From Syntrophomonadaceae bacterium (GTDB taxonomy: Bacteria; Bacillota; Dethiobacteria; DTU022): 64,000 nucleotides of DNA. Positions 10,187 to 28,246 of this stretch are shown here, in pieces. A program made the translations under genes and the position numbers. The notes under the pieces were generated by a model, which made no database searches, had not been told where the DNA came from, and saw only the letters and a list, made by a program, of their open reading frames with translations. The stretch spans positions 44,201 through 108,200 of the forward strand of contig PWYU01000122.1 in the NCBI GenBank assembly GCA_003567725.1. Reading direction: 5' to 3'. Position 1 is the first letter of the stretch. Each line of letters starts with the position of its first letter.

Positions 10187-10237
10187 AACTACTCAGGCTT
10201 AGCTTATCATTCAACAAGGGCAATAGGCTGAGTAGTT
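10187..10237 (-). repeat. Mosaic intergenic repeat, copy 2 (modules A+D only, inverted orientation)
   Basis: aactactcaggct-tagc-ttatcattcaacaagggcaataggctgagtagtt is the reverse complement of the 18464 copy, minus the central module. Confidence 0.75.
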
Positions 10238-10284
10238 ACGGCCATTTTAACTAATTCATTTTGTGTAAAGAATGAGGCAGTCCG

Positions 10285-10647: not shown

Positions 10648-10649
10648 GC

Positions 10650-13436
10650 TTATGCATCTCCTTTATCCAGCTCGACTGTCAGCTCTTTAAAGCTTTCTGA
10701 CGGCAGATCTTCCGGTTTGATTTTTAAAACAATCATTTCACCTGGAGTGAGGATTTTTTTCTTCATATTTTTAACCGTTTTACCACCTGCTTTAGCTATT
10801 AGGGCACTATTCTCATGGTGGCCGTCACAACGCATATATAGCTCGACACCATTATTCATCAAGGCGGTTCTAATCTGCTGGGGCACGATATAATTAATGC
10901 CTTTTCCCGGAGTGGTCTGAAAACTGAATCCTTCCTCGGGCACTTTGCCATAGCGCATGATATAATCAGCAGCCCCCCGCCCGGCCTTGTAGCTTTCCTC
11001 AGTAACCCAGTCCACCAGGTCGTGGACATGAACCACGTTGCCGCAGGCAAAAATACCTTCAACACTGGTTTCCATGGCTTCGTTAACTACCGGTCCGCCG
11101 GTAGCCGGATGAAGTGTAACCCCGGCGCTCATGGAGAGCTCATTTTCAGGAATTAAACCGCGCGAAAAAAGGATGGTATCGCATTGTAGTTCTCGTTCTG
11201 TTCCTCCAATTGGTTGTTTGTTCTGGTCGGTGTTGGCGATTGTAATGCTTTCAACCCTATCTTTACCTTTAATGTTGGTAATGGTGTGTTCAAGAAGCAT
11301 GGGAATGTTGTAATCTTCCACACATTGCACGTAGTTACGAACCAGGCCTTCAGAGTATGGTTTGCGTTCAATAACAGCTACCACTTCGCCGCCTTCCCAG
11401 ACGATGCGGCGGGCCATAATCAAGCCGATATCGCCCGATCCAAAAACGACCACTTTTCTACCAACCATATATCCTTCGATATTGACAAAGCGCTGGGCGG
11501 TGCCGGCTGAAAAGATTCCAGCCGGCCTGGTTCCCGGGGTACTGATAGCCCCGCGGGTTCTTTCCCGGCAACCCATGGCCAGCACAATCGCTCCAGCCTG
11601 CACTGCGCTCAAGCCGTCCTGGTTGTTAATAAAGGTAATGCGGCGGTTTTGGCCGACGGAGAGGACCATGGTATTTAACTTACAGCAGATCCCTTTATCT
11701 TCTAGTTGATCGATAAACCGCTCAGCGTATTCCGGTCCGGTTAGCTCTTCCCGGAATTGGTGCAGGCCAAAACCGTTATGAATACATTGCTGCAGGATTC
11801 CGCCCAGTTCATGGTCTCGCTCGATAATCAGAATGTCATCTATGCCTTTCTCCCTGGCGGCTATTGCTGCAGCCATCCCAGCCGGCCCGCCTCCAATAAT
11901 AACCAGGTCATAGTGATCTTTTCCGGCCTGGGCTTTTTTCAAGTCCCGGGACTCTGCCGGGCAGGTTTCTTTTGCAGCGCCTGATCTCTCCACCTTAAGC
12001 TGTTTTTCCTTGGTTAGCCCGGCAAGAATGTAGGAACCGGGATTGTTTTTGGTGATATCCTCCGGGTCCAGGTTAAGTTCCCGGGCCAGGATCTGGATCA
12101 CCCTGGGCCCGCAGAAACCGCCCTGGCAGCGCCCTCCACCCGGCCGGGTTCTCTTCTTAATGCCGTCTACTGTCCGTGCTCCCACCGGGCCTTTAATGGC
12201 CCTGACAATTTCACCTTCGGTGACGTTTTCGCAGCGGCAAATAATCCGGCCAAAGCGAGGGTCTTCCTTGATTAAGGCTGTTTTTTCCTGCTCGCTAAGG
12301 TTTATAAAAGCGCTGTGGCGCTTGCCAGCAGGGCAGTAATGATGATTTTTCTCCAGGGGCCCGGTCTTTTCTGTTAAAAGATCAGCTACGTATTCTGCTA
12401 TGGCCGGTGCTGAAACCAGTCCTGGTGACTCAATGCCCGCTACATTGATGAAGCCAGGGGTATGACTGTGTTCCTCGACAATAAAATCTCCCACGCTTGT
12501 TTTAGCCCTCAAGCCGCTGAATGAAGTGATGATCTTGTGTAAAGGCAGGCCGGCTTTAATCTTTTCGGCATTCTCACGGATGAAGGACAGGCCCTGTGCG
12601 GTTGTTTCTGTTGCTTCTTTGTTATCGACAGTTTCAGCATTGGGTCCGACGATTAAATTACCGTGCGCAGTGGGTGAAATCAGCACACCTTTGCCAAGCT
12701 TTGTGGGGCAGGGGAACAGAACATGCCTGGCAAAATGCCCGGCGTTTTTGTCTAAAAGAAAATATTCTCCCCTGGTCGGTTGAATCTGAAAATAAGCTGG
12801 ATTGACCATTGCATTGATCTGGTCGGAATAAAGACCGGCGGCGTTTATGACATGCCTGGCTTCGATTTCCTCACTGCCACAGTTTAATGTAAACTTTTCA
12901 CCGGTTTTTACGATGTCCGTAACAGCACTGTTGCACCTGATTTCAGTTCCGCTGTTAGCGGCGCTTTCTGCTAAGGCGATGGCGAGCAGGTAGGGATCAG
13001 TGACCCCGGCAGTTGGTGCATATAGTGCGCCTCTTGCTTCTTTGCTCAAACCGGGCTCCAGATCTTGCAGTTTTTCCTTACCCACTATTTCCAGGCCGGG
13101 GACACCCAGATGGCGTCCTCTTTCAGCAAGGTCATTTAAAGTAAGCATTTCCTCTTCGCTAAATGCAATCACCAGGGAACCGTTTTGTTTAAAAGCAACA
13201 TCAAGCTCCCGGCACAAAGCCTCAAACATCCGGTTGCCTGCAACATTAAATTTTGCTTTCAAGGTGCCTGGTTTAGGATCAAATCCGGCGTGGACAATGG
13301 CGCTGTTCGCTTTAGTAGTGCCGTTGGCTAGATCACTGTCTTTCTCAATTAATATTAATTGCAGGTTATATTGAGCCAGCTTTCTGGCTATGGCAGTGCC
13401 GATAATACCGGCACCAATAATGGCGACGTCAAACAT
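10650..13436 (-). CDS. Fused FAD-dependent oxidoreductase (GlpA-like, with BFD-like [2Fe-2S] domain) / NAD(P)-FAD-dependent pyridine-nucleotide-disulfide oxidoreductase
   Basis: A single 928-aa frame. The N-terminal half has GAGIIGTAIARKL followed by a CRCENVTEGE…C BFD-like segment. The C-terminal half carries a second dinucleotide motif, VIIGGGPAGMAAA, and a GSGDIG NAD motif. SD AGGAGG. Confidence 0.85.
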   Translation of the reverse strand: MFDVAIIGAGIIGTAIARKLAQYNLQLILIEKDSDLANGTTKANSAIVHAGFDPKPGTLKAKFNVAGNRMFEALCRELDVAFKQNGSLVIAFSEEEMLTLNDLAERGRHLGVPGLEIVGKEKLQDLEPGLSKEARGALYAPTAGVTDPYLLAIALAESAANSGTEIRCNSAVTDIVKTGEKFTLNCGSEEIEARHVINAAGLYSDQINAMVNPAYFQIQPTRGEYFLLDKNAGHFARHVLFPCPTKLGKGVLISPTAHGNLIVGPNAETVDNKEATETTAQGLSFIRENAEKIKAGLPLHKIITSFSGLRAKTSVGDFIVEEHSHTPGFINVAGIESPGLVSAPAIAEYVADLLTEKTGPLEKNHHYCPAGKRHSAFINLSEQEKTALIKEDPRFGRIICRCENVTEGEIVRAIKGPVGARTVDGIKKRTRPGGGRCQGGFCGPRVIQILARELNLDPEDITKNNPGSYILAGLTKEKQLKVERSGAAKETCPAESRDLKKAQAGKDHYDLVIIGGGPAGMAAAIAAREKGIDDILIIERDHELGGILQQCIHNGFGLHQFREELTGPEYAERFIDQLEDKGICCKLNTMVLSVGQNRRITFINNQDGLSAVQAGAIVLAMGCRERTRGAISTPGTRPAGIFSAGTAQRFVNIEGYMVGRKVVVFGSGDIGLIMARRIVWEGGEVVAVIERKPYSEGLVRNYVQCVEDYNIPMLLEHTITNIKGKDRVESITIANTDQNKQPIGGTERELQCDTILFSRGLIPENELSMSAGVTLHPATGGPVVNEAMETSVEGIFACGNVVHVHDLVDWVTEESYKAGRGAADYIMRYGKVPEEGFSFQTTPGKGINYIVPQQIRTALMNNGVELYMRCDGHHENSALIAKAGGKTVKNMKKKILTPGEMIVLKIKPEDLPSESFKELTVELDKGDA

Positions 13437-14753: not shown

Positions 14754-15758
14754 TCAATTCCCGGAGGATAACTTCTTTTGTACATATGCAGGAGGGATCC
14801 AGAGCAGATCATTGTCTATAAGCTGTTCTGGATTAACCGGTCTGCCATTAAGATTTACCTCCCAGTGCAAATGGGGGCCGGTGGCATAACCGGTCATTCC
14901 TAAAGTTCCTATAATCTCTTCCTGTTTAACAGCCTGGCCTTCACTAATTTTAATAGAATCCAGATGCATATAGGTGCTTGATAGACCAAGGCCGTGATCG
15001 ATAATCACGGTTTTTCCTCCTGAGAGGAGATCATCAGCCAACCTTACAATGCCGCTGTTCGGAGCACTGATGGGAGTGCCTGTTTCTTCAGCGATATCAA
15101 TCCCGGCATGCCGCCGCGGGGGGTTGTTGTTGATCACCCTGATAGCTCCGTATTCTGAGGTAACCCTTCCCTCAAGAGGTTGAATAAAAACATCTGTCCA
15201 CAGGGGGTAAGATTTGCTATTAGAACGGGCCTGCCTGACCTTTTCCCGGTCTTCAGCGAGACGTTCAGCCGTCCATCCTGCAGTTACCCGGGCAGGCATA
15301 GAGAACCTGGCCGTTTGAAATGTTTTTTCAGAAAGGTTAACGGTTGTTTCAAGGGTTCTGTTAGGGTTTTCTTGATCCTGGACTTGGATTCTCAGATCAT
15401 AACTGCCGGGGTCTGTTTCATAACTGACTCCGATTATAGTGTAAAGCAAATTACCAACCCGGTATAATTCAGAAACTGCTCCAGGGAAGTCAAAATCAAT
15501 ATTGATCTCAGCTTGCCCGCTAATTGGACTTGCCTCGAGTATCAGGAAATCGCCCGGTTTGGGATTTGCAGGATATATGATGATTTTCTCTTCTGCAGAG
15601 GGTTCATAGATCGAGATATATAAGGGAGGGGTTTCAGGTGAATAGTCAGATGCTGTAAATATCTTTTCAGGACCGTCCTGGATTAAGATCAGAGCGCTGG
15701 TAACCATAAAACAAGCGATAACCAGAAAGAAAAAACTCTGTCCTTCTTTAAATATCAT
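14754..15758 (-). CDS. M23 family metallopeptidase (LytM-like), secreted or membrane-anchored
   Basis: 334 aa with an N-terminal hydrophobic signal. The M23 catalytic motifs HAGIDIA and HLHWEV are present. Confidence 0.85.
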   Translation of the reverse strand: MIFKEGQSFFFLVIACFMVTSALILIQDGPEKIFTASDYSPETPPLYISIYEPSAEEKIIIYPANPKPGDFLILEASPISGQAEINIDFDFPGAVSELYRVGNLLYTIIGVSYETDPGSYDLRIQVQDQENPNRTLETTVNLSEKTFQTARFSMPARVTAGWTAERLAEDREKVRQARSNSKSYPLWTDVFIQPLEGRVTSEYGAIRVINNNPPRRHAGIDIAEETGTPISAPNSGIVRLADDLLSGGKTVIIDHGLGLSSTYMHLDSIKISEGQAVKQEEIIGTLGMTGYATGPHLHWEVNLNGRPVNPEQLIDNDLLWIPPAYVQKKLSSGN

Positions 15759-16040
15759 ACTAACCTCCGCGGTGATTTGACAGTGATGATCATAAACTAA
15801 TTTACCATAAAAAGCAGGAGAGGGGCACCCTTTGTAGAAAAGTTATTTATTCACAGATTACAGTTGGGTTTAACAATACGGCTTTTTAAAGAGTATGAGA
15901 AGAATTTGATTTACTAAAGCCAGTCAAAAAGAAGAGCTTAAATAACTATTCTAAAAGTGCGATTTACCATTTTCACCCATCTGATGGTAAGGGTAAGGGT
16001 TCATGGGGGTCTACTCTGCCTTTTGTCTTTGTTAAATGAC

Positions 16041-16150
16041 AACAGGCGCCACGGGGACGTTTCGAACGTCCCTTAAAACTTAGCTTTAAGGCCGAAGTAA
16101 AGATGATGGAATCGTTATCTGTGGCTTAGCGGCTAGGCTTGATTAGTTAT
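16041..16150 (+). repeat. Mosaic intergenic repeat, copy 3 (modules B-like, SD/ATG module, C/D-like)
   Basis: ggcgccacggggacg…cttaaggccgaag…gatgatggaatcg…ctgtggcttagcggctaggcttgattagtt. Confidence 0.65.
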
Positions 16151-16221
16151 GATCTTAAAAACTTATTAGTTCTTTGAAAGCTGTTTTAGCTTGCTTGCAG
16201 AAAACTGTTTTGGAGGTGCAC

Positions 16222-17325
16222 GTGGTGCTTGATTTATTAACCGCTTTTTGGACTTTTATTGTAAACCAGGATAACCACTGGTGGCAGATTTTGATAGCCG
16301 CCTTGATTATTATATTTACTTTTTTTGTGCGAGGTATTTTGACCCGTATTGTATTAAATATTATTATAAGACTAACCAAAAAAACAAGAACCGAACTTGA
16401 TCGTGTAATAATGCTGGCTTTTGAAGGACAGCTAAAAGTCTTGATCTTTATTATCGGTTTATTCCTGGCCTTTAACTACCTTCCTCTTTCTCCGGGCGTT
16501 ATGATCGTTTTAACCAGCCTGTTCCGCTCGGCGATCATCGTTTTAATTGCCTGGGGTTTATTTAATTTGGCGGGAAATGAGGCCTATAACCGTGTTAGTT
16601 ACTTAATGAAATTAGAGCAGGGCCTGGCTATTTTTGTTTCCAAAGGTCTGCGGGCGATCATTATTGCCCTGGCTTTTGTTATTGTTATCCAGGAATGGGG
16701 TTATGATGTGAGCGGCTTGATTGCCGGCCTTGGTATCGGTGGACTGGCCCTTTCTTTAGCGGCCAAAGATGCACTGGCCAATATCTTTGGCGGAGTAATG
16801 ATTATTCTTGACAAACCTTTTGCTGTGGGAGACTGGATCCTCACTCCCAGCGTTGAAGGGACCGTGGAAGAAATGAGCCTGCGCAGTACCAGGGTGCGTA
16901 CATTTGCCAATTCTTTAGTTACTGTCCCCAATGCGGTGCTGGCCAACGAAGCGATCACCAACTGGACAAGGATGCAAAAACGGCGGATTACTTTCCACCT
17001 GGGAGTAACTTATACAACTCCCCGGCATAAACTGCAAAACTGTGTTAACAAAATCAAGGATTTGCTAAAAAATCACCCCGACGTACACCCTGATCTGATC
17101 ATGGTGCACTTCGACCAGTTTGCCGGTAGCAGCCTGGATATTTTCATTTATTTTTTCACCAGGACCAAGGTTTGGACTGAATTCCTGGCTGTCAAGGAAG
17201 ATATTAATTTTAAGATTATGGAGATCCTTGAAAAAGAAGGAGTCTCTGTTGCCTTTCCAAGCCGCAGTATCTATTTTGAAAATAAACTGCAATCTGAAAG
17301 CAGCCTAAAAGATCCCAAAGTTTAG
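16222..17325 (+). CDS. Mechanosensitive ion channel, MscS family
   Basis: Multi-TM N-terminus followed by the MscS beta-domain. The track ORF begins at 16174 inside the repeat copy, but a GTG at 16222/16225 with SD GGAGGTG 5-8 nt upstream is the more likely start. Confidence 0.83.
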   Translation: MVLDLLTAFWTFIVNQDNHWWQILIAALIIIFTFFVRGILTRIVLNIIIRLTKKTRTELDRVIMLAFEGQLKVLIFIIGLFLAFNYLPLSPGVMIVLTSLFRSAIIVLIAWGLFNLAGNEAYNRVSYLMKLEQGLAIFVSKGLRAIIIALAFVIVIQEWGYDVSGLIAGLGIGGLALSLAAKDALANIFGGVMIILDKPFAVGDWILTPSVEGTVEEMSLRSTRVRTFANSLVTVPNAVLANEAITNWTRMQKRRITFHLGVTYTTPRHKLQNCVNKIKDLLKNHPDVHPDLIMVHFDQFAGSSLDIFIYFFTRTKVWTEFLAVKEDINFKIMEILEKEGVSVAFPSRSIYFENKLQSESSLKDPKV

Positions 17326-17457
17326 CCGCTTGCAGCCAAAACCAGGTTATAATGCTAAGATGCGTGAGCTATAAGCCTTGCTTTTAAGGCTTATCTTAAT
17401 TGAAAGGCTTTAGCCATTCCTTAACTGCAGCAGATCTTGTTAGCGCAGTACAATAAT

Positions 17458-17496
17458 ACCGCCTGAAAAAAACTCAGGCGGTAAGCTGTTCTTTTT
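17458..17496 (+). terminator. Rho-independent terminator after mscS
   Basis: Stem ccgcctga / tcaggcgg with an A-rich loop, followed by a T-rich tract. Confidence 0.6.
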
Positions 17497-17595
17497 ATCT
17501 GTAAAATGTTTAAGTTTTAAATCCTGTTTTACCGGGCTTTTAAAACCATTTTTACTTTCCCAAAATTTACTTTCCCCAAAGCCCGTAAACGCTCA

Positions 17596-18240
17596 TTAAC
17601 CTTGAGTTTTTTTCCAATCATTAAGAAACTTTTCAATCCCCAGGTCAGTCAGGGGATGTTTAAACATCTGTTCCAGCACCTTAAAAGGAACGGTAGCGAT
17701 GTGGGCACCCGCCAGTGCTACTGCCGAGACATGTTCAGGGTGACGGATGCTGGCGGCGATTACTTCAGTATCAAGATCGTGCAGATCGATCATGTCGACG
17801 ATATCGCGAACCAGATCTACCCCGGTTTGGCCGATGTCATCCAACCTTCCTAAAAAGGGACTAACATAGGCAGCACCGGCTCGAGCAGCCAGTAAAGCCT
17901 GGTTGACTGAAAAAACCAGGGTAACATTAACCTTGATGCCTTCAGAGGAGAGGGTTTTAACCGCCCGCAATCCTTCGGGCATAACCGGGACTTTAATGAC
18001 CACGTTTTTGTGAACTCCTGCCAGTTCACGGCCTTCTTTAACCATGCCTTCATAATCGAGCGATATAACTTCGGCACTAATCGGGCCGTCTACTATACAG
18101 CAGATAGCGGGCAGGATCTTAGAAAAGTCTTCATTTTCTTTAGCTGCCAAAGAGGGGTTGGTGGTGATTCCACTGATTACTCCCCAGCCGGCTGCTGTTT
18201 TTATTTCTTCCACATTGGCTGTATCCAGGTATAACTTCAT
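17596..18240 (-). CDS. tal: Transaldolase / fructose-6-phosphate aldolase family (short TalB-type)
   Basis: 214 aa from [18 protein letters not shown]. The track ORF is longer through an in-frame upstream extension with no RBS. Confidence 0.9.
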
Positions 18241-18463
18241 ATTCTTTACCTCCAGGTAAATAGTGATTAGAAGGGCCGAATAACACAGCTGCATTGGCGC
18301 TTTTTCCGGCCGCATTACAAGTATTCTCCTTACCAGTTTATTTTCCCTGCCATTGATAACCGCTATTTAAAAGATCAGCAGGTTAATTAAACCTGTGTTA
18401 ATCTTCCCTTAGACGATTCTCCAAACCGAAACTCGTTTTATTTGTTCTCAAGTAACTACTCAG

Positions 18464-18525
18464 CCTATTGCCCTTGTTGAATGATAACCGTCCCCTGTGG
18501 CTTAGCGGGCTAGACCTGAGTATTT
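18464..18525 (+). repeat. Mosaic intergenic repeat, copy 4 (modules A-C-D, full length)
   Basis: aactactcagcctattgcccttgttgaatgataaccgtcccctgtggcttagcgggctagacctgagtat. The termini are inverted-complementary. Confidence 0.8.
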
Positions 18526-18664
18526 ACGTTTTCAAGAATTTTCGAGCATAGACTTCTCAAAAACCGTACCCTTAAATAGCCGGTTCAGGTTGACTTTTCA
18601 GCTATTTTAGCCAGTTGCCAGGAAAGAAGGGGACTGATAAAATGAAGTGAAAGGATGGTGAACG

Positions 18665-20548
18665 GTGATAAAAGAACTTGAGGCAGCGCGAAAACAATAT
18701 CCCGATAAATTTGCTGATATGGATGATATTTTTTGCAAGGTCAGTCCGGGGGATCGTATTTATATTGCAACCGCCTGCGGCGAACCGCAGTACCTGGTGC
18801 ATAATTTCCTTGAATACGTGGAAGCAAATCCCAAGGCTTTTTTTGATACGGAAATCCTTCACGTCTGGACTTTGGGGGTTTCCCCTTATACTGATGAAAG
18901 GTTAAAAAATACTTTCCGGTCCAATTCTTTTTTTATCAGTCACAATATTCGCCAGGCAGTTAATGAAGGTCTGGCTGATTACACGCCCCTATTTTTAGCC
19001 GATATTCCTGCCTTGTTTCGCCGTCGCCAGGTAAAGGTCGATGTGGCTTTGGTTCAGGTCTCTGTGCCGGATGAACATGGTTATTGCAGCCTAGGGGTTA
19101 GCCTTGACATAACGAGAGCGGCAGTGGAAAACGCTGATCTGGTTATCGCCCAGGTTAATTCGCATATGCCCCGGGTGCACGGGGACACATTTATCCATCT
19201 TTCTAACTTTGATTATATTGTTCCGCATGATGAACCGCTCTTGGAATATAACCCCCCGCCGCCGGATAAAGAAATTGTTGAAGCTATCGGCAATTACGCC
19301 GCTCAAATTGTAGAAGATGGCGATACAATACAGGTTGGTTACGGATCCCTGCCTGACGCTATTTTATCTTGCTTTGGCGATAAACGCCATCTCGGTGTCC
19401 ATACCGAACTATTAAAAAATGGCCTGATAGATCTTGTCAAAAAGGGCGTAATCGATAATAGCATGAAAAGTAGCGATCGCGGCAAAGTGGTGGCCTCTTT
19501 CTGCATGGGAACTAAAGAAACCTATGCCTTTATTCATGATAACCCGCTTATTAAATTTAAAGAGATTGATTATACTAACAACCCTATGGTCATCGGCGGA
19601 CATGAGCATATGACGGCTATTAATACCGGTCTGGAAATTGATTTGAGCGGACAGGCCACGACTGAATCGATCGGCGATACGTTCTATAGCGGGATAGGTG
19701 GTTTGGCCAGTTTTATGCGCGGTTCTGCCATGGCGCCATATGGTAAAAATATTTTGGTCCTGCAGTCTACCTCCCGTGACGGAAAGTATTCAAGGATTGT
19801 GCCTGCATTGCAAGAGGGTGCAGGAGTAACCCTGACGCGAGGAGACCTATATTATGTAGTAACAGAGTATGGAATTGCCTTTTTGCATGGCAAAAATATC
19901 AGAGAAAGAGCGATGGCTTTAATTGCTATTGCCCATCCGAAATTTCGGCCCTGGTTGATAGAAGAAGCGAAGAAGAGGAAACTGATCTATAAAGACCAGG
20001 CCTTCATGCCGGGTGAAAAGGGTGAATATCCGGCTCATTTAGAGGCTTACCGGACTACCAAGCGTAATGTCCGGATATTCATGCGTCCGGTAAAAATCAG
20101 CGATGAAACTCTTATTAAGGATTTCTTTTACTCATTATCCGATAAAAGTATTTACCAGCGTTTTCTAACCGTCAGACGTCAGCTATCCCGTGAAGAGCTG
20201 CAAAAGCGGTTTGTTGTAATCGATTATACCCGTGAAATGGTTATCCTGGCTGTGAAAAGATATCTAGGCCAGGAAGTGATTACCGGTATCACCCAGTACT
20301 GCATGGGTGAAAATGACCTTTCAGCCGAGATTTCCATCGTGGTCCGTGACGATTTTCAAAGCAAAGGCATTGGATTTGAACTGCTTTCCTACTTGGTCAG
20401 GGTGGCAAAAAACCAGGGTTTGCATACCTTTACTGCCGATATCCTGCCCGATAATATTGCTGTTTTCAAGCTAATTGAAAAGCAAGGCCTGGAATTTGAC
20501 CGTAAATGGGATGGCGGCTTGATCCATATAAAGATTTATTTGAAATAA
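18665..20548 (+). CDS. Bifunctional acetyl-CoA hydrolase/transferase-family (4-hydroxybutyrate CoA-transferase-like) / GNAT acyltransferase fusion
   Basis: 627 aa. The first ~430 aa resemble CoA-transferase family I. The C-terminal ~190 aa form a GNAT fold (…ISIVVRDDFQSKGIGFELL…). GTG start with SD AAGGATGGTGA. Confidence 0.8.
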   Translation: MIKELEAARKQYPDKFADMDDIFCKVSPGDRIYIATACGEPQYLVHNFLEYVEANPKAFFDTEILHVWTLGVSPYTDERLKNTFRSNSFFISHNIRQAVNEGLADYTPLFLADIPALFRRRQVKVDVALVQVSVPDEHGYCSLGVSLDITRAAVENADLVIAQVNSHMPRVHGDTFIHLSNFDYIVPHDEPLLEYNPPPPDKEIVEAIGNYAAQIVEDGDTIQVGYGSLPDAILSCFGDKRHLGVHTELLKNGLIDLVKKGVIDNSMKSSDRGKVVASFCMGTKETYAFIHDNPLIKFKEIDYTNNPMVIGGHEHMTAINTGLEIDLSGQATTESIGDTFYSGIGGLASFMRGSAMAPYGKNILVLQSTSRDGKYSRIVPALQEGAGVTLTRGDLYYVVTEYGIAFLHGKNIRERAMALIAIAHPKFRPWLIEEAKKRKLIYKDQAFMPGEKGEYPAHLEAYRTTKRNVRIFMRPVKISDETLIKDFFYSLSDKSIYQRFLTVRRQLSREELQKRFVVIDYTREMVILAVKRYLGQEVITGITQYCMGENDLSAEISIVVRDDFQSKGIGFELLSYLVRVAKNQGLHTFTADILPDNIAVFKLIEKQGLEFDRKWDGGLIHIKIYLK

Positions 20549-20549
20549 G

Positions 20550-20598
20550 GGCTTAAGGCCGAAGGGAAGATGGTGGAACGGTCCCCTGTGGCTTACGG
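20550..20598 (+). repeat. Mosaic intergenic repeat, copy 5 (SD/ATG module + C module)
   Basis: gcttaaggccgaagggaagatggtggaacggtcccctgtggcttacgg. It sits between the CoA-transferase/GNAT gene and the FemAB-like gene and supplies an in-frame alternative start at 20570. Confidence 0.75.
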
Positions 20599-20608
20599 AG
20601 AATTTACT

Positions 20609-21592
20609 ATGGCTTTTGAACTTAAAGCAGAAACTATTTCTACTTTACAACAATATTATAAAAAAGAGGAGCTCGATCTGAACTGGCCCCATGTTTTTGT
20701 TCTGCCTGTCTGGCTGCAATCCTGGTGGGAAGCCTTTGGGCAGGAATATCGCTTATGGCTGCGCTCTATCTGGCAAGAGGGAGCCTTAATTGGCCTTGCT
20801 CCCTTGATGGTTAAAGGAGGGGAAGCACGCCTCATTGGCAGCGCCGATGTTTGTGATTACCTCGATTTCATCACCATTCCCGGCAGGGAAAAAGCTTTTT
20901 TCCAGGCTCTTGTACCAGCTTTGCAAAAAGCAGGTTTCAAAAACTTAATTTTAGAAGCTCAGCGCCCTGAAGCGGTTTTTTTTAAGGCTCTGGCAGAGAT
21001 TGAACATCACTCTTCTATACCGGCTAAAATTGATTTTATCCGGGAAAATGAAGCCTTTGAAGTTGCCCTCCCTCACACCTGGGAAGATTACCTGGCCCTG
21101 TTAAGCAAAAAACAACGTCACGAAGTAAAACGTAAACTTCGCCGCCTGGACAGGGAAGCACCGCATTACGGTTACCAGGTAATAGCAGAATCAGAAGAGG
21201 TGCAGAAATTTGTTCCCACATTTTTAACCCTTTTACAGGAACACCCGGATAAGGCCGAGTTTTTAACCCCGCAAATGGAACATTATTTCAAAGGCTTGAT
21301 CGATAATATGTCCCAGGCAGGCCTGGCCCGGTTCGGCCTGTTTAAAATTGATGGATTTAATGCCGCCGCTGTGCTGTACTTTGATTATGGGGGGCGGATC
21401 TATCTTTTCAACAGCGGCTACATTACCCGGTACCGACCCCTGAGCGCTGGTCTTATTTCCAAGCTGCTATTAATAAATGAGGCCATTTCCCAGGGTCGGC
21501 AGGTATACGACTTTTTAAAGGGGCGGGAAGTATATAAAAGCCGCCTGGGGGGAACGGGTATTCCTATTTTCAAAGTTGAACTTCAATTTTAA
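20609..21592 (+). CDS. GNAT-fold FemAB/BioF2-like (PF13480-type) acyl- or aminoacyl-transferase
   Basis: ~327 aa from MAFELKA. The C-terminal signature …YDFLKGREVYKSRLGG is typical of CelD/FemAB-related GNATs. The track start at 20570 lies inside the repeat copy, so I prefer the ATG at 20609. Confidence 0.68.
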   Translation: MAFELKAETISTLQQYYKKEELDLNWPHVFVLPVWLQSWWEAFGQEYRLWLRSIWQEGALIGLAPLMVKGGEARLIGSADVCDYLDFITIPGREKAFFQALVPALQKAGFKNLILEAQRPEAVFFKALAEIEHHSSIPAKIDFIRENEAFEVALPHTWEDYLALLSKKQRHEVKRKLRRLDREAPHYGYQVIAESEEVQKFVPTFLTLLQEHPDKAEFLTPQMEHYFKGLIDNMSQAGLARFGLFKIDGFNAAAVLYFDYGGRIYLFNSGYITRYRPLSAGLISKLLLINEAISQGRQVYDFLKGREVYKSRLGGTGIPIFKVELQF

Positions 21593-21630
21593 AGGTCTTT
21601 ACCCTAAATAAATGAGGTGGCTGTCAGAAC

Positions 21631-22827
21631 ATGCGCCTGGCGATTTTAAGTATTCACAGCTCTCCAATGGGCCGGGCCGGCTCCAAAGATACCGGTGGCA
21701 TGAGTACATACCTGCGCAGTCTGTCATCAGCCCTGGGCAGAAAGGGGCACCAGGTTGATCTTTACACCCGCAGGCCTAACTCCGGAAGAGAAAGGGTAGA
21801 AAACTTAGAAGCGAATGTGCGCCTTATTTATCCAGGCGACGGACTTGCTGAACTGGATAAAAACCACTTATTCTCCCATTGCCCTGCTGTGGCCGATAGC
21901 ATCGATCGCTTTAGCCGCCTTGAAAAAATCAATTATGATTTTATTTATAGCCATTACTGGTTATCTGGAATTTCCGGCCGCCTTCTTAAAAAGCGCTGGA
22001 ATAAACCTCACCTGATCATGTTTCACACTCTGGCCCGGGCTAAGAATGAATTATGTCCCGGTGAAAAAGAACCTCAGCTGCGTTTGGAAACCGAGGCGGA
22101 ATTGGCCCGGGATTGTGACCTGGTAGTAACTGCAGCTGAATCTGAAAAGAGACGGATCCTTAATTATTATAATCTTTCTATAAAAAAAACTGCGCTTATT
22201 CCCTGTGGTATAGAGCGCTCCGTATTTCACCCAATTAATGAAAAATGCCGCCTGGATTCAAAACTGCATAAGGGCGCGCAGGCTTCCGGAAAAACTATTT
22301 TAGCTGTAGGGCGAATTGAACCTGTAAAAGGCTTTGAACTTTTAATTGAAGCGGTTTCTTTACTACCTTCTGAAGATGATTTTAAGGTTGTGATCATCGG
22401 TGGAGAAGGAAGCGGCAGGGCCCCCTTAGCTGCCCTAAAAGACAAGGTTTTTGATCTTGGTTTAAGTGACCGGGTATTTTTCACCGGAGTAGTTGAGCAC
22501 AGCTGTCTGCCTTTTTATTATAACGCCGCCGACATCACCGTAATCCCCTCCTATTATGAAAGCTTTGGACTGGTGGCCCTGGAATCTATTGCCTGCGGCA
22601 CACCGGTGATCGCATCCCCGGTCGGAGGAGTACCGGAACTGGTTGGCCAAAACAACGCTTTCGGTTGCCTGGTAAAGGGACGTGATCCGGTTAGCTGGGC
22701 TGCTGCTATTCGCAAACTGTACACTAAAAGCAAGCCAATTCCGCACACCGCTCTTGAAACCGGCCTTACCCCGTACAGCTGGCCTGACGCAGCCGAAAAG
22801 CTGGAACTGGCTTTAAGCTCCCTTTAA
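21631..22827 (+). CDS. GT4 family glycosyltransferase, MshA-like (D-inositol-3-phosphate glycosyltransferase-type N-terminus)
   Basis: 398 aa. The N-terminus LSIHSSPMGRAGSKDTGGMSTY has the MshA-type HSSP/GGM signature that binds inositol phosphate. HSHYWLSG and a C-terminal E-x7-E-like region are also present. SD GAGGTGG. Confidence 0.78.
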   Translation: MRLAILSIHSSPMGRAGSKDTGGMSTYLRSLSSALGRKGHQVDLYTRRPNSGRERVENLEANVRLIYPGDGLAELDKNHLFSHCPAVADSIDRFSRLEKINYDFIYSHYWLSGISGRLLKKRWNKPHLIMFHTLARAKNELCPGEKEPQLRLETEAELARDCDLVVTAAESEKRRILNYYNLSIKKTALIPCGIERSVFHPINEKCRLDSKLHKGAQASGKTILAVGRIEPVKGFELLIEAVSLLPSEDDFKVVIIGGEGSGRAPLAALKDKVFDLGLSDRVFFTGVVEHSCLPFYYNAADITVIPSYYESFGLVALESIACGTPVIASPVGGVPELVGQNNAFGCLVKGRDPVSWAAAIRKLYTKSKPIPHTALETGLTPYSWPDAAEKLELALSSL

Positions 22828-22897
22828 GACATGAAAAATAGATTATGTTATAATGAGAACTGATTATTAAATCATTACAGGTTAGGATGAATTAAAA

Positions 22898-23704
22898 ATG
22901 GATTTGCAAATAATTCAAGACGCCTTGATCAGGTTCGGAACCCAAATTTTACTGGCTTTAATTGTTCTAATAATCGGTCTAAAGATCATCAATTTAATAG
23001 TTAGAGCAATATCCAAACGAATGGTCAAAGCGCACATGGATCCCTCGCCGCAGCCTTTTATAGCTTCACTGCTGCGGGTAACCCTGCAGATCCTCCTATT
23101 TATTTCTGTAGCTTCTATGATCGGCGTAGAAATGACTTCATTCATTGTCGTCATCGGAGCGATGGCTTTTGCCGTAGGCCTGGCCCTGCAGGGGAGCTTG
23201 GCCAACTTTGCGGGCGGAGTTTTAATTTTACTGCTCAAACCTTTTAAAGTGGGAGATTATATCCAGTCTGCCGGCCATGCCGGAACAATCAAAGAGATTC
23301 AGATCTTTTATACCCTGCTTGACACCCCTGATAACACCCGGGTGATAGTGCCCAATGCCTTATTATCAAACAGCAGTGCTATCAATTACAGCAAAAACCC
23401 GGTGCGCAGGCTTGATCTTACTTTCGGGGTCGGTTATGAGGCCAGTATTGACCAGGTCAGGGGTATTCTGCTGGATCTGGCTGACCGGCATGAGTTGATT
23501 TTTGATGATCCGCCACCCCAGGTTTTATTGGGAGAGCACGGAGATAACGCTGTTTTATTTTACCTGAGGATGTGGTGTAATGCTGGAGATTACTGGCCCC
23601 TTTACTTCGAATTTATGGAAACAGTTAAAAAAGCATTTGATGAAGCTGGCATCAATATCCCCTATCCACAGAAGGATGTTCATCTTATAAAAAACGAGGG
23701 GTAA
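22898..23704 (+). CDS. mscS: Small-conductance mechanosensitive channel, MscS family
   Basis: 268 aa with three TM helices then the MscS beta-domain (…GDYIQSAGHAGTIKEIQIFYT…). SD AGGATGA. Confidence 0.85.
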   Translation: MDLQIIQDALIRFGTQILLALIVLIIGLKIINLIVRAISKRMVKAHMDPSPQPFIASLLRVTLQILLFISVASMIGVEMTSFIVVIGAMAFAVGLALQGSLANFAGGVLILLLKPFKVGDYIQSAGHAGTIKEIQIFYTLLDTPDNTRVIVPNALLSNSSAINYSKNPVRRLDLTFGVGYEASIDQVRGILLDLADRHELIFDDPPPQVLLGEHGDNAVLFYLRMWCNAGDYWPLYFEFMETVKKAFDEAGINIPYPQKDVHLIKNEG

Positions 23705-23978
23705 ATAAGCTGCCTTGAAAGATTGCTACTGTAATTTTGCTACCTGGTGGCTGGATTTAAAAGACCTAACCTGGACGAGCCAGTTCTATAATAGTTGGTT
23801 TTAAAAATGAGTCCTTATACCCAGTGTATATTGGTGTTTTGGGAATGCTAAAAAAATGGTCTTACCAAATTTGTGCAGAAATTTAGTGTTAAGGGACTAA
23901 AGCAAATTTTGAAAAAATGACAGTAAGAACAGCTACTAAGCAATTTTATACAAGCACCCATAAAAGGCGGTTACAGAT

Positions 23979-24695
23979 ATGGAACAAAACAAAGCTATAG
24001 AAGCGGTAAAAGCAGATGTAATGGTGATTAGCCCCCCCCCCGACGATTCAGAGTTTGGAGTGGCCGGATCGGTGGCCCGCTGGGTCAACGAAGGCAAGGT
24101 AGTGGTCTATGTAATATGTACCAATGGCGAAAAAGGGACCAGTGATCCCGAGATCAACCCTGAAGCTTTGAAAGAAACCCGGCAAAAAGAACAAAAAGCA
24201 GCAGCCGAACTGCTCGGCGTGCGAGAAGTAATCTTTCTCGGTTACGAAGATCAGGGCTTGGAAGACACTCCTGAATTTCGCAAAGATCTCGTACGCTGGA
24301 TCCGTCACTTCAAACCGGACACCCTTGTTACCGCCGATCCCTACCGCCGCTATATCTGGCACCGTGATCATCGCATTGCCGGGCAAGTAGTCATGGACGC
24401 CGCCTTTCCCTATGCCCGGGACCATCTGGCCTATCCTGACCTTCTGGAAGAAGGGTTAAAACCTCATAAGGTCAAAGAAATTCTCACCTGGGCCAGTGAA
24501 GATCCCAACTATTATTCTGATATTACAGCAACTTTTGAAATCAAACTGGCGGCCCTGCGCTGTCACGATAGCCAGGTAGGCGCACATCACTTTCCTTCCC
24601 TTGAACAGTGGTTGCGAAAAAGGGCCGAAGACGCTGCCCGGGAGCAGGATTTTCTGCTGGCTGAAGCTTTTCACCGGGCTGAATTCTTCTGGTAG
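23979..24695 (+). CDS. PIG-L/LmbE family N-acetylglucosaminyl deacetylase (MshB/BshB-like); the conserved His of the HPDDE motif reads Pro inside a 10-C homopolymer
   Basis: 238 aa with the PIG-L fold. The motif reads VISPPPDDSE where the family has (A/P)HPDD(E). The run cccccccccc at 24032-24041 encodes the PPP. Confidence 0.78.
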   Translation: MEQNKAIEAVKADVMVISPPPDDSEFGVAGSVARWVNEGKVVVYVICTNGEKGTSDPEINPEALKETRQKEQKAAAELLGVREVIFLGYEDQGLEDTPEFRKDLVRWIRHFKPDTLVTADPYRRYIWHRDHRIAGQVVMDAAFPYARDHLAYPDLLEEGLKPHKVKEILTWASEDPNYYSDITATFEIKLAALRCHDSQVGAHHFPSLEQWLRKRAEDAAREQDFLLAEAFHRAEFFW

Positions 24696-24710
24696 AGTCA
24701 GCGGTTTTTT

Positions 24711-25373
24711 CTAAGTACTGCTCCTTAACCAGCTGACATCTCCACTCAGTTCAAAATCTTTTCTGGCGCTTTTGAATGCTTTAAACAATTCTCTTTCGGT
24801 TTTTAAGATGGTTTTTTCACCGTGTCCGGGCAGGATTACTGTCTCATCGGGCAGGATCATGATTTTTTCCTCTATTGAAGCCATAATTTGCTTAAAAGCT
24901 CCAGTTGAAGCAGTTTTGCCCGGCCCGCCCGGAAAGATGGTGTCTCCGGCAAGGAGATAGTCATCAACTTTAAAACAAAGGCTGCCGGGAGTATGTCCGG
25001 GAGTGTGCAGGACTTCCAGCTCAACGCTGCCACATTTGATTTGCTCGCCACCCTTTAAAAGCTGGTCGGCTTTTACCGGCAATTTTTCAGCATCGGCATT
25101 GTGCACGGCTAAAATTGCTTTCCAGTCATTATGGAGCGTTTTTAGATCGGTAACATGATCCATGTGTCCATGAGTCATGAGGATATATTTAACCCTGGTA
25201 TTTATAAGGCGTTCTTTGATTATTTCAGCGCTGCCTGGAGCATCAATTAATATGCTTTCGTTATTCTGCAGACAAATAATCATATAGGCATTGGTTCCAA
25301 ATGGTTTTGTTTCCAAACGCAGCAATGCTTTTTGATCGTCTTTCTTTATTTCTTGAATCCTGCTGGTCATCAC
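24711..25373 (-). CDS. MBL-fold metallo-hydrolase (glyoxalase II / hydroxyacyl-thiol hydrolase-like)
   Basis: 220 aa with THGHMDHV (HxHxDH) and downstream His/Asp ligands. Confidence 0.8.
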   Translation of the reverse strand: MMTSRIQEIKKDDQKALLRLETKPFGTNAYMIICLQNNESILIDAPGSAEIIKERLINTRVKYILMTHGHMDHVTDLKTLHNDWKAILAVHNADAEKLPVKADQLLKGGEQIKCGSVELEVLHTPGHTPGSLCFKVDDYLLAGDTIFPGGPGKTASTGAFKQIMASIEEKIMILPDETVILPGHGEKTILKTERELFKAFKSARKDFELSGDVSWLRSST

Positions 25374-25707
25374 GGTATCTCTCCCTTATAATAAATTTGT
25401 TTTGTTTTCCCTATACCTTAACTCTCTATCAGATCAAGACTCTAACATTATTATAACAGCCTTAACAACGCTTTACTTAAAAGTTTCTTCAGTGTTTATG
25501 AAGAATAATGATCTTGCCCCGTCAGCTGAACCGCTTAAAAAGAAATTTCACCGGGTCAGTTAGAGCTGCTGACGATTAACTGTAAATATTATCAATTTGC
25601 CTTCGGTTTATTAAGCTTGCAGCAGTTTTATTTCAGCCTATACTATTTCTTCTATCGCGTTATATTTTGCAGGACATTCTCCTTCGAAAACAGAAGTTAC
25701 CTTTGCT

Positions 25708-26979
25708 GTGCTTTTTAAATCGAAGGAAGTGCGATCGTTGAAGCAGTTAAAACAATTAAATCAGAACGGGCTCTTTACATTATTAATTGTTTTATCTGTC
25801 CCCTATCTTGCTTTAAGCCTTAACCAGCATGGTTTTATGGCCCTGCTGCCATTTATCCGGGAAGAATTTATACTGTCCAGGACCCAGGTGGGCCTTTATG
25901 CTACTTTTTATTTTTTAAGCTCTGCCTTGCTGGCGGTTTCCACTGGCAGCATTGTTGACAGGTTAGGCCCGAGAAAAGGTATACTGCTTGGCATCGGCTT
26001 TATGGGATCGGTATTTTTTTTGTACGGCTTTGCCCCTTCTTATGAAATATTACTGGGTTTGGCTTTTCTGGCAGGGCTCGGTTGGAGTATTATCACGCCT
26101 TCTGTTAATAAAGCCGTTTTGATGAATGCACCTGCCGACAAGCGGGCGGTTTCCATGGGTATTATGCAGTCCGGTGTAGGTATTGGCGGCCTAATGGGGG
26201 CCAGTCTTCTGCCGGTAATCAGTGTAGCTTTAGGTTGGCGCCCGGCAATTCAGATGGCGGCCGGCTTTTCCATAATCGTCTGGTTCCTGGTGCTTACCTT
26301 TTACCGTGAAAAAAAAGCTGGCATTGCTCAGGAAAAACCGGCAGCAAAAAACGGTAACCCTGGTTTTGTGCAAAGTTTAATTGACCTGACAAGGAATAAA
26401 GCCCTTCTCAATATATGTATACTCGGCCTGATGTTTGGAGTTGCCTGTGGGGCTGTAATTTCGCATTTTGTGGTTTATTTATCTGAAGATTTAAGTGTTA
26501 GCCGGGCTGTAGCCGGCCTGGGATTGGGATCATTTCAGATAGGAGGTATTGTAGGCAGGCCAATATGGGGGGTTATTTCCGATCGCTTTTTTAAAGGAAA
26601 GAGGGGAAAAGCCCTGATGGTATTAGGAATAGCAATTGGTATAAAATTTATAATAAGCGGGTTGTTATCTTTTGCTCCCCCGATCAGTACATATTTTGTA
26701 GTTATATTTGCTTTCATTTTAGGTTTTTCTGCCTTTGGTTGGCCGGGGGTGCACTTTGTTTCAATCGCAGAAAATGCCGGCGAAGATCAGGTGGGGATGG
26801 CCACCGGTTTATCGCTGCTATTCTTAAGAGCCGGATTGTTGGCCGGCCCACCGATATTTGGCTATCTGGCAGATATCCAGGAAAGCTATATCTTAAGCTG
26901 GATTAGCTTTGGAGCTATCATCACCTTACTTTATGTAACAGGGTTGCTAAAATCCAGCAAAGAGGCTGCTAAGCCTTGA
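25708..26979 (+). CDS. MFS transporter
   Basis: 423 aa with ~12 TM segments. GTG start at 25708, but a TTG at 25738 has the better SD (GAAGGAAG). Confidence 0.8.
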   Translation: MLFKSKEVRSLKQLKQLNQNGLFTLLIVLSVPYLALSLNQHGFMALLPFIREEFILSRTQVGLYATFYFLSSALLAVSTGSIVDRLGPRKGILLGIGFMGSVFFLYGFAPSYEILLGLAFLAGLGWSIITPSVNKAVLMNAPADKRAVSMGIMQSGVGIGGLMGASLLPVISVALGWRPAIQMAAGFSIIVWFLVLTFYREKKAGIAQEKPAAKNGNPGFVQSLIDLTRNKALLNICILGLMFGVACGAVISHFVVYLSEDLSVSRAVAGLGLGSFQIGGIVGRPIWGVISDRFFKGKRGKALMVLGIAIGIKFIISGLLSFAPPISTYFVVIFAFILGFSAFGWPGVHFVSIAENAGEDQVGMATGLSLLFLRAGLLAGPPIFGYLADIQESYILSWISFGAIITLLYVTGLLKSSKEAAKP

Positions 26980-27125
26980 TAACAAAGACTGGCGTTTTAT
27001 GGCTAATAGAAATTTCAATGAAAGTTAAGTGATCAGGTTTCCCTAAATATAGATAATCGGGTATAATAATTTTTGGGAATAATTCATAACCGACCATCAT
27101 TATAACAGGAAGAGGGATCTAGTAA

Positions 27126-28223
27126 ATGTCAAAGATTAAAGTTGCCATTGTTGGTGCTGGTAATTGCGCCAGCTCGTTAATCCAGGGGATTCATTATTAT
27201 AAAGATTTAAAAGAAGATGAAGCCATAGGGCTTCTGCACTGGAATGTAGGTGGATACCGGCCTTATGATATTGAGATCAGCGCAGCTTTTGATATTGATA
27301 AACGCAAAGTAGGTATGGATATAAACCAGGCGATTTTCGCACCCCCGAACTGCACCGTTAAATTAGCTCCCAACTTGCCTCCGGGTGGCCCAATCGTCCA
27401 CATGGGGCGGATTTTAGATGGTTTTTCTGAACATATGCTTGATTATGAAGATCAATATACTTTTATCAAAAGCAGCGCTCCTGAGCCGGTAAAAGAAGAT
27501 GTGGTTAAGGTTTTACGAGACTCGGGCACAGAGATCATGCTAAATTATCTGCCGGCCGGATCAGAGCAAGCTGCTCGCTTTTATGCTGAATGTGCTCTTG
27601 AAGCAGAAGTTGGGTTTGTAAATAATATTCCAGTTTTTATTGCCAGTGACCCGCAGTGGGCGGCTCGCTTTGCTGAAAAAAATGTGCCTATTATCGGTGA
27701 TGATATTAAATCGCAGATGGGGGCGACTATACTACACCGTGCCCTGGCTGATTTATTCAAAAATCGTGGAGTGAAGCTTGAACGTTCATACCAGCTCAAT
27801 ACCGGCGGCAACACCGATTTTCTGAATATGACAAACCAGAACCGTCTGGCCACCAAGCGTATTTCAAAAACGGAAGCGGTTCAGTCTGCTGCGGCCAAAA
27901 GGCTGCCCGATCGAGATATCCATATTGGCCCCAGCGATTACGTATCCTGGCAAAAAGATAATAAGGTCTGCTTTTTACGCATGGAAGGGCAGATATTCGG
28001 TAATGTGCCCATTAACCTGGAAATGCGTTTAAGCGTGGAAGATTCGCCCAACTCAGCCGGTATTGCCATCGATACTGTGCGTTGTTGCAAGCTTGCTCAA
28101 GATAGAAAGCAAGGGGGAGTTCTTGAAGGGCCATCTGCATATTTTTCAAAGCATCCTCCCCGGCAGTATCCGGACTACGAAGCTTACCGGCTCACAGAAG
28201 AATTTATCTGGGGCAAGTCATAA
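27126..28223 (+). CDS. ino1: myo-Inositol-1-phosphate synthase (bacterial/archaeal short form)
   Basis: 365 aa. The NAD-binding site KVAIVGAGNCASSLIQGI is present, and SYQLNTGGNTDF is characteristic of MIPS. Confidence 0.88.
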   Translation: MSKIKVAIVGAGNCASSLIQGIHYYKDLKEDEAIGLLHWNVGGYRPYDIEISAAFDIDKRKVGMDINQAIFAPPNCTVKLAPNLPPGGPIVHMGRILDGFSEHMLDYEDQYTFIKSSAPEPVKEDVVKVLRDSGTEIMLNYLPAGSEQAARFYAECALEAEVGFVNNIPVFIASDPQWAARFAEKNVPIIGDDIKSQMGATILHRALADLFKNRGVKLERSYQLNTGGNTDFLNMTNQNRLATKRISKTEAVQSAAAKRLPDRDIHIGPSDYVSWQKDNKVCFLRMEGQIFGNVPINLEMRLSVEDSPNSAGIAIDTVRCCKLAQDRKQGGVLEGPSAYFSKHPPRQYPDYEAYRLTEEFIWGKS

Positions 28224-28246
28224 TCCTTAGAAGGAGCGCTGGTCTA

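Follow-up and report, generated by a model that had tools for sequence, protein, structure and literature searches.

The Pat-kind acetyltransferases of bacteria and archaea have been sorted into five domain types. GNATs of the Pat type acetylate AMP-forming acyl-CoA synthetases at their catalytic lysine, and the large partner domains of the Pats bind acetyl-CoA and control the GNAT (PMC8556138, PMC12184503); the regulatory domains resemble ADP-forming acyl-CoA synthetases (ACDs) in types I and II, and are cAMP-, ACT- or NADP-binding in type III (PMC8556138, PMC12184503). Here, we have analysed a protein whose architecture is found in none of the five types, a class-I CoA-transferase domain fused to a C-terminal GNAT domain, encoded on a stretch of 64,000 nucleotides from a Syntrophomonadaceae bacterium (contig PWYU01000122.1, positions 44,201 to 108,200 of the forward strand), which we refer to as “the window”. 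The reading that we favour, with moderate confidence, is that the fusion is a Pat-like protein lysine acyltransferase with a CoA-transferase partner domain, acting at the acetate/acetyl-CoA node. We arrive at it because the GNAT module is of the Pat type, the CoA-transferase domain is constrained, an operon with an ACD and with a protein resembling the N-terminal half of Pta occurs in the family, Acs and a sirtuin are occasionally found nearby, and the biology of the Pats has been published; what we infer beyond this concerns the protein-lysine acceptor, the identity of the target and the role of the CoA-transferase domain as an enzyme, a sensor or both.

The open reading frame of the fusion is a real gene, far beyond chance: the exact 627-residue protein of the window is already on record at the NCBI, and its full-length homologs make up more than 120 protein clusters at 61–95% identity, which the databases name ‘GNAT family N-acetyltransferase’ or ‘acyl-CoA hydrolase/GNAT’. 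An earlier, sequence-only reading of the window had described a CoA-transferase-family domain joined to a C-terminal GNAT, and had called for the domain boundary to be mapped; Pfam, PDB matches and the alignment boundaries confirm this architecture, with the CoA-transferase domain at residues 3–441, a linker at 442–453 and the GNAT at 454–624 (Pfam and PDB alignments). The AlphaFold model of the full-length fusion has a pLDDT of 78.7 and a pTM of 0.75. The first 18 residues of the window protein (YPxKF) are conserved in distant homologs, across phyla, and for this reason we take the GTG start to be right. Many close relatives (P0001 and others) have been called as proteins of 609 residues that start at the methionine matching M19 (window position 18719); since the 18 residues upstream of it are conserved across phyla, these gene calls are probably truncated.

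The assignment of the GNAT half is drawn from comparisons by sequence, profile and predicted fold. The Pfam match (Acetyltransf_3/1) covers residues 470–609 (E=1e-10), and in a phmmer search of the PDB with the GNAT of the window the best match is PatZ (9it0/9isq, E=5e-19), aligned from the YPxxLE lead-in to the C-terminus; the other best solved relatives are the GNAT of SlPatA (4nxy/4u5y), MsPat (4oll), Rv0998 (4ava) and the Sulfolobus Pat (3f8k). With a profile built from 17 diverse family members, the top nine PDB matches are all Pat-family lysine acetyltransferases (E=7e-29 to 3e-10): the alignments of PatZ, SlPatA and the Sulfolobus Pat span the GNAT module, from profile positions ~6–28 to ~173–179, and those of the mycobacterial Pats run from 22 to 170, while most other GNATs of the PDB match the generic core alone, from profile position ~90–110 on. 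The first GNAT matches of the predicted structure in Foldseek are PatZ, 4u5y (the SlPatA GNAT–Acs complex, TM 0.83) and Rv0998. Each of the 17 family members compared with NCBIfam has ‘acetyltransferase Pat’ as its best model (Pat at 5e-27), with scores of 61–65 bits against an equivalog cutoff of 460.

The residues that serve catalysis in the Pats are also in place. In the alignment to 9it0, E555 of the fusion lies opposite E809 of PatZ, the equivalent of the catalytic E123 of SlPatA, and R499 lies opposite R754 of PatZ. Mutating E809 or R754 lowers the activity of PatZ (PMC12184503), and the acyl-CoA loop of the GNATs has been defined as Q/R-x-x-G-x-G/A (PMC8556138); the sequence-only reading had raised the possible loss of this loop, and we find it present, as Q565-x-x-G568-x-G570, together with E555. 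Among 81 family sequences E555 is conserved in most, with D, Q or N in six of them, and the loop carries H for Q565 in four, E for G568 in one and A or S for G570 in three; in alignments of 14 and of 54 sequences Q565, G568 and G570 are invariant, as are Y455, P456, E460, S492, R499 and F500. No MshD model of NCBIfam matches the GNAT at E<=0.01, and the sole aminosugar GNAT model that matches is PseH, weakly, for 13 of the 17 members (best E-value 1e-5). By these comparisons the GNAT is of the Pat type, with a protein lysine as its predicted acceptor; the proposal of the sequence-only reading, i.e. that the acceptor is the glucosamine (GlcN) produced by a neighbouring deacetylase, finds no backing here, as no MshD or other aminosugar GNAT scores comparably.

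The N-terminal half contains the Pfam domains AcetylCoA_hydro (residues 3–190, E=1.9e-46) and AcetylCoA_hyd_C (residues 282–435, E=1.4e-56), both far above their gathering thresholds, and it matches solved CoA-transferases over the whole domain at ~40% identity (3eh7, E=8e-113; AbfT 3gk7, E=2e-105). Its predicted fold is similar to the 4-hydroxybutyrate CoA-transferases 3eh7 and 3gk7, to 2oas and to RipA (Foldseek TM 0.85–0.91); by this fold and by its nucleophile, the domain belongs to the class-I CoA-transferase superfamily. The active-site glutamate that forms the enzyme-CoA thioester is E238 in AbfT and E249 in RipA, and its counterpart in the fusion is E248. For AbfT, E238 has been named as the active site, and Gln337, located in the GXGG loop, contacts the CoA (PMC11659651). 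Across the 81 family sequences the nucleophile position is occupied by E in 74, D in four and S in three: the serine is found in Methanothrix-type members (L032, L033 and L045, fusion gene at ~10001–11850, with HTS in place of HTE), which keep the catalytic glutamate and the pyrophosphate-binding loop of the GNAT, and the aspartate is found, e.g., in L006 and L007, within the clade of the window. The neighbours of one of the serine-type members (L033) are CobQ, MoeA, PhoU/Pst and a tRNA synthetase, and offer no functional hint.

The CoA-transferase domain of the window protein also has the motifs QxGhG (Q223-V-G-Y-G227), N320/EIDLxGQ, SGxGG (G343/G345/G346) and TEYG, and it is probably catalytically competent. 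At the CoA-contact loop (residues 342–349, window positions 19688–19711), Leu347 takes the place of AbfT Gln337 and Ser349 that of Asp339, where most of the family has QADF; the canonical combination E...GGQxDF is found in none of eight Bacillota-clade sequences, as against 30 of the 34 members that are linked to an ACD. Because the loop is non-canonical and the nucleophile has changed from E to D in sister lineages, CoA transfer is possibly altered in the clade of the window. The window protein scores 251 bits with the NCBIfam equivalog of butyryl-CoA:acetate CoA-transferase, below the cutoff of 675, and it reaches equivalog level for no characterised specificity, so that a substrate specificity is not assignable from it.

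At least 569 species-representative genomes, from anaerobic bacteria and archaea, hold relatives of the fusion; the best 80 of these, whose loci we have compared, are all near-full-length and 57–86% identical. The closest among the 80 are Syntrophomonadaceae, and they are accompanied by other Bacillota, Dehalococcoidia, Desulfobacterota/Syntrophales, Nitrospirota, Thermotogae, Bipolaricaulota, Spirochaetes, Acidobacteria, Methanothrix, Thermoplasmata and others. The CoA-transferase is the more conserved half: the median identity of the window protein to 73 distant members is 64% for the CoA-transferase half and 48% for the GNAT, and the columns that are at least 90% conserved amount to 43% and 29%, respectively. 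A search of 1.84 billion representatives with the GNAT module alone has given 1842 matches at E<=1e-10; among the best 150 of these, 52 have the CoA-transferase-GNAT architecture, 12 are ACD-GNAT proteins (type I Pat), one is GNAT-ACD (type II), 81 are stand-alone and four are of other kinds. Outside the five-type scheme we have also noted a Usp-Usp-GNAT protein (P0258, 485 aa) and a GNAT-Peptidase_C39_2 protein (P0256, 545 aa), and one protein of 967 aa (P0197) has an additional N-terminal region with weak Fer4 matches, followed by CoA-transferase and GNAT. The surroundings of two stand-alone relatives (P0126 and P0134) hold no CoA-transferase, ACD or Acs, and are uninformative.

The gene context in other genomes has been explored by clustering the open reading frames of the 80 loci without preselected partners; 65 of the loci have room downstream of the fusion. 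In 34 of these 65, a protein of ~708 aa is encoded directly downstream of the fusion, on the same strand (from an overlap to +107 nt), and in 31 loci it is followed by the gene of a protein of ~346 aa. The ~708-aa protein is an ACD (CoA_binding_2, Succ_CoA_lig, Ligase_CoA_2 and ATP-grasp_5); its closest match is 8wzu, an ADP-forming 4-hydroxybutyrate-CoA ligase (E=5e-149), its homology to the regulatory domain of PatZ extends from end to end (E=7e-84), and with the phosphohistidine loop SHTG(S/A)LAG kept in 31 of the 34 operonic copies it is apparently active. The ~346-aa protein consists of AAA_26 and DRTGG and resembles the N-terminal half of long Pta; DVU3031, a similar stand-alone gene whose role is unknown, is part of an operon for the conversion of acetyl-CoA to acetate in Desulfovibrio (PMC4481167). 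Acs (1039 bits, cutoff 657) is found within a few kb of the fusion in nine of the 80 loci, and in one locus of Thermoplasmata (L085, 6650–17354) the order is SIR2, topoisomerase, fusion, ACD, DRTGG, Acs. A tblastn search of the 80 loci with one archaeal SIR2 has given no matches, a weak test with a single divergent query.

The fusion of the window has lost the ACD/DRTGG operon context. In five loci of the same chromosomal backbone (L081, L086, L089, L083 and L087) an ACD of ~710 aa is located between an OYE-type reductase and ThiS-like/SRAP genes, and the corresponding ~370 bp of the window, from the OYE reductase to the ThiS-like open reading frame (31329–31698), hold neither an ACD nor a remnant of one. 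We have not counted this Bacillota backbone ACD, located 3–8 kb from the fusion in L081, L083 and L087, as the same linkage, as it is only 30% identical to the operonic ACD of other phyla. Elsewhere in the window, a lysine 2,3-aminomutase adjoins a PaaK-like AMP-forming ligase on the minus strand (46244–48973), which is the sole AMP-binding enzyme of the window, ~27 kb from the fusion; farther on are an aldehyde:ferredoxin oxidoreductase and a LarA-like lactate racemase (53140–54879 and 59955–61280).

In the mechanism that we propose, the GNAT module would acylate a lysine of another protein. The CoA-transferase domain, which takes the place held in type I Pat/PatZ by an inactive ACD-like regulatory domain, would act at the acetate/acetyl-CoA node, where it would bind short-chain acyl-CoA and the free acid and probably interconvert them; by doing so it would control either how much acyl-CoA is supplied or how active the attached GNAT is. 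The targets would be enzymes of the node, with Acs, whose lysine acetylated by Pats lies in a PX4GK motif, as the most likely one and the co-operonic ADP-forming synthetase as a possible one. In this way, for example, futile cycling between enzymes that form acetate and enzymes that activate it could be avoided, which is costly for organisms near the thermodynamic limit.

Several observations weigh against this proposal. About half of the loci show no acetate-node partner within 10 kb of the fusion, and in the window there is no Acs, ACD, DRTGG or deacetylase (the PIG-L of the neighbouring gene cassette aside), while the fusion gene probably shares a transcript with genes of that cassette. The substitutions in the CoA-contact loop of the window clade (Q347L, D349S) and the serine nucleophile of three Methanothrix-type members indicate that some lineages may have an altered CoA transfer or may be able to do without it. 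Lastly, the affinity of the GNAT to the Pats predicts a protein-lysine acceptor and is no proof of it.

The cassette begins 21 nt downstream of the fusion with the gene of an Acetyltransf_6 protein; a terminator is absent from this gap, and in the source genome a single transcript probably covers the fusion, Acetyltransf_6 and GT4. The position upstream of these two genes, with PIG-L nearby, is as the sequence-only reading had claimed. The PDB sequence search with the Acetyltransf_6 neighbour has given no match. From this gene to Ino1 (20570–28223), the cassette is a mycothiol-like ‘GlcN-inositol’ gene set in the genome of an anaerobic Syntrophomonadaceae-like Bacillota, and no homolog of MshC or MshD has been seen among its genes. 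Promoter-like matches around the fusion gene are no more numerous than in shuffled sequence, and the Rfam scan of 15700–29300 has found no RNA family at E<=0.1. On either side of the fusion there is a gene for a mechanosensitive channel of the MscS type, at 16174–17325 and 22898–23704; the second interrupts the cassette, both in the window and in L001, and in L091 a different mechanosensitive-channel gene occurs there on the opposite strand. This gives a hint that the product of the cassette may be an osmolyte.

The linkage of the fusion with the cassette is confined to one clade. In a tblastn search with the neighbours of the window, Acetyltransf_6, GT4 and PIG-L have been found in six of the 80 loci (L001 and L003–L007), all of them from the closest Bacillota; annotated contigs add the linkage at L081, L086, L089 and L091, with the fusion 73–75% identical in L081 and L086. 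At least ten loci of the clade have retained fusion, Acetyltransf_6, GT4 and PIG-L in this order, with neighbours down to 41–65% identity. The common backbone of this chromosomal position consists of a DAO-type oxidoreductase, AspAT, an M23 peptidase, MscS, FSA and the fusion, then ACD, ThiS and SRAP. On this backbone, L087 (68% identical) and L083/L084 (Dethiobacteria, 67%) have the fusion but lack the cassette; the cassette is likewise missing in L088, where the fusion is 66% identical; in L090, AspAT, M23 and FSA are followed after 249 bp by Acetyltransf_6, GT4, PIG-L and MBL, and the fusion gene is absent. On the basis of L083/L084 and L087 as against L090, the fusion and the cassette are separable both ways at one chromosomal position. 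The cassette, ahead of which the fusion is transcribed, is inserted or retained in the fusion's own clade only and behaves as a mobile or losable unit; the local gene order is real yet clade-specific, because co-transcription is likely here while the units are separable in relatives, and we judge that the neighbouring cassette genes are not required partners of the fusion. The co-occurrence with MshA-like/LmbE genes in other genomes, which the sequence-only reading had looked to, therefore does not hold beyond this clade in the loci compared.

Table 1. Coordinates of the fusion gene, its domains and motifs, and the neighbouring cassette in the window, with one example of the operon from another locus.
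Feature	Position	Strand	Remarks
Sigma-70-like promoter match, TTGCCA-17-TAAAAT with TG	18615..18643	+	upstream of the fusion gene; consensus match alone
Fusion open reading frame, 627 aa	18665..20548	+	GTG start; ribosome-binding site AGGA at 18652-18655, 9 nt upstream
Class-I (AbfT/Cat1/RipA-type) CoA-transferase domain, aa 3-441	18671..19987	+	Pfam PF02550 and PF13336, PDB, Foldseek
Glu248 codon (HSE/HTE motif)	19406..19408	+	aligned with AbfT active-site Glu238
SGIGG loop (GXGG)	19688..19702	+	followed by L347-A-S349-F in the window, family consensus Q-A-D-F
Interdomain linker, aa 442-453	19988..20023	+	between the alignment ends of CoA-transferase and Pat module; lower pLDDT
Pat-type GNAT module, aa 454-624	20024..20536	+	PDB phmmer, profile, Foldseek, NCBIfam
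YPxHLE lead-in of the GNAT module	20027-20044	+	Pat-type alignment
Segment aligned to the PatZ gating motif	20129-20179	+	Pat-type alignment
Glu555 codon	20327..20329	+	opposite catalytic Glu809 of PatZ (9it0 numbering)
Acyl-CoA pyrophosphate-binding loop, Q565-S-K-G568-I-G570	20357..20374	+	Q/R-x-x-G-x-G/A motif
Acetyltransf_6	20570-21592	+	Pfam; without NCBIfam or PDB sequence match
MshA-like GT4	21631-22827	+	268 bits, below the cutoff of 462
MscS	22898-23704	+	inside the cassette
PIG-L deacetylase	23979-24695	+	
MBL hydrolase	24711-25373	-	
MFS transporter	25708-26979	+	
Myo-inositol-1-phosphate synthase (Ino1)	27126-28223	+	427 bits, below 638
Operon of CoA-transferase-GNAT, ACD and AAA_26+DRTGG	L076:10001-15100		example locus

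The alternatives to the proposed mechanism differ in the part that they assign to each half of the protein. The CoA-transferase domain could be an acyl-CoA-binding sensor or scaffold that does not transfer CoA, the protein being a Pat with a different regulatory domain: the regulatory domains of type I and II Pats are themselves inactive enzyme relics that bind acetyl-CoA (PMC8556138, PMC12184503), and the members with serine or aspartate at the nucleophile, as well as the non-canonical loop of the window clade, would fit such a role. We consider this rather unlikely, however, given that the CoA-transferase is the more conserved half and that the nucleophile is kept in 74 of 81 sequences together with every motif common to the solved class-I CoA-transferases, a degree of conservation that is unusual for a decayed enzyme domain. 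The same conservation could instead point to a fusion that is mainly a metabolic CoA-transferase for short-chain acids, with a GNAT that does not regulate other enzymes but modifies the protein itself, a protein N-terminus or a small metabolite, and the operon with an apparently active ACD, a typical partner for the conservation of energy from acyl-CoA, would suit it as well; the retention of the whole Pat module, whose lead-in and gating segment give the protein-substrate site of PatZ and SlPatA its shape, and the proximity of Acs and a sirtuin to the fusion in some loci make this a doubtful candidate, to which we give little credence.

The interpretation offered by the sequence-only reading is partly supported: the two intact domains are confirmed, the aminosugar acceptor is not. 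In that interpretation the CoA-transferase would make a non-acetyl acyl-CoA from acetyl-CoA and a free acid, and the GNAT would use it to acylate an amine; with the genes of the cassette, this would be the amino group of a GlcN-inositol-type intermediate from GT4, PIG-L and Ino1. With E248 and the motifs of the GNAT intact, making and then using an acyl-CoA is chemically possible, and the tight gap without a terminator, the gene order that has outlasted the divergence of the neighbours and the lack of an obvious MshD-like capping acetyltransferase in the cassette speak for the pathway; its assignment is nevertheless not supported, as the GNAT matches Pat where it fails to match MshD, the cassette is absent from 74 of the 80 species-level loci, fusion and cassette occur without each other on the same backbone, and the window protein has kept its Pat-specific motifs unaltered in comparison with the family members without the cassette. 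We regard it as very improbable, and the aminosugar annotation that the local gene order suggests should not be propagated. Closer to the mechanism that we favour are two related readings which, taken together, we hold to be unlikely: the fusion might be a self-supplying lysine acyltransferase, whose CoA-transferase would turn a free short-chain acid (e.g. butyrate, crotonate, 4- or 3-hydroxybutyrate) and acetyl-CoA into an acyl-CoA that is passed to the fused GNAT, so that non-acetyl acyl marks would be written on metabolic enzymes; or the fusion and the ACD of the next gene might form a complex resembling the ancestor of type I and II Pats, i.e. a split Pat. The acyl-lysine proteomes of syntrophs are rich and are currently attributed to non-enzymatic chemistry, and a self-supplying acyltransferase would be an enzymatic writer for them.

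The CoA-transferase-GNAT architecture is unusually conserved and is present in hundreds of strict-anaerobe species, among them syntrophs, sulfate reducers, Dehalococcoidia, Methanothrix and Thermoplasmata. Should the GNAT acylate Acs-type enzymes, as in our preferred mechanism, then in organisms near the thermodynamic limit the acetate/acetyl-CoA node would have its main enzymatic regulator in this family; as the partner domain of the fusion, unlike that of Pat, is seemingly a working enzyme, the family ties CoA-transfer chemistry to protein acylation in a way that can be tested directly, and it bears on the enzymatic or non-enzymatic origin of the acyl-lysine marks in syntrophs. The review of the Pats (PMC8556138) and the 2025 survey (PMC12184503) contain no CoA-transferase-type Pat, and our full-text literature search has found no description of a CoA-transferase-GNAT protein, although absence from the literature searched is no proof. 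With a CoA-transferase as its partner domain, the fusion falls outside every described Pat type.

The comparison with the described systems places the fusion nearest to the Pats by its C-terminal half. With the type I Pat/PatZ of Salmonella enterica and E. coli (9it0/9isq) it shares the C-terminal GNAT with the YPxxLE lead-in, the gating segment, the catalytic glutamate and the pyrophosphate-binding loop, at a GNAT identity of ~30–35%, as well as a large N-terminal domain that goes back to an enzyme handling acyl-CoA; that domain is, in type I, ~700 aa, ACD-like and without the catalytic histidine, whereas in the fusion it is a CoA-transferase of ~440 aa with its nucleophile intact, and a separate, apparently active ACD is encoded in the next gene in most fusion lineages. 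The GNAT of the type II Pat of Streptomyces lividans (PatA; 4nxy, 4u5y) is homologous over its full length (profile E=9e-27, TM 0.83), and the operon order, fusion and then ACD, parallels the GNAT-ACD domain order of PatA; the GNAT of PatA is, however, N-terminal and fused to an inactive ACD-like domain, and PatA has no CoA-transferase domain. The cAMP-regulated type III Pats of Mycobacterium (MsPat and Rv0998; 4oll, 4ava) have the same arrangement of a regulatory domain followed by a C-terminal Pat-type GNAT, and theirs is the NCBIfam model that fits all 17 fusion members best, yet far below the equivalog cutoff; their regulatory domain is a small cyclic-nucleotide-binding domain. The N-terminal half, in turn, has its counterparts in AbfT/Cat2 and RipA (class I, Cat1 group; 3gk7, 3eh7, 3qli), with which it shares the fold, the catalytic glutamate and the QxGhG and GXGG loops; these are stand-alone enzymes of ~430–450 aa, whereas the window protein carries the C-terminal GNAT and has Leu and Ser in place of Gln337 and Asp339 of AbfT. 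As far as these comparisons of sequence and predicted structure reach, the fusion family is best read as an extension of the Pat classification, in which a CoA-transferase partner that is probably active replaces the inactive synthetase-like regulatory domain.

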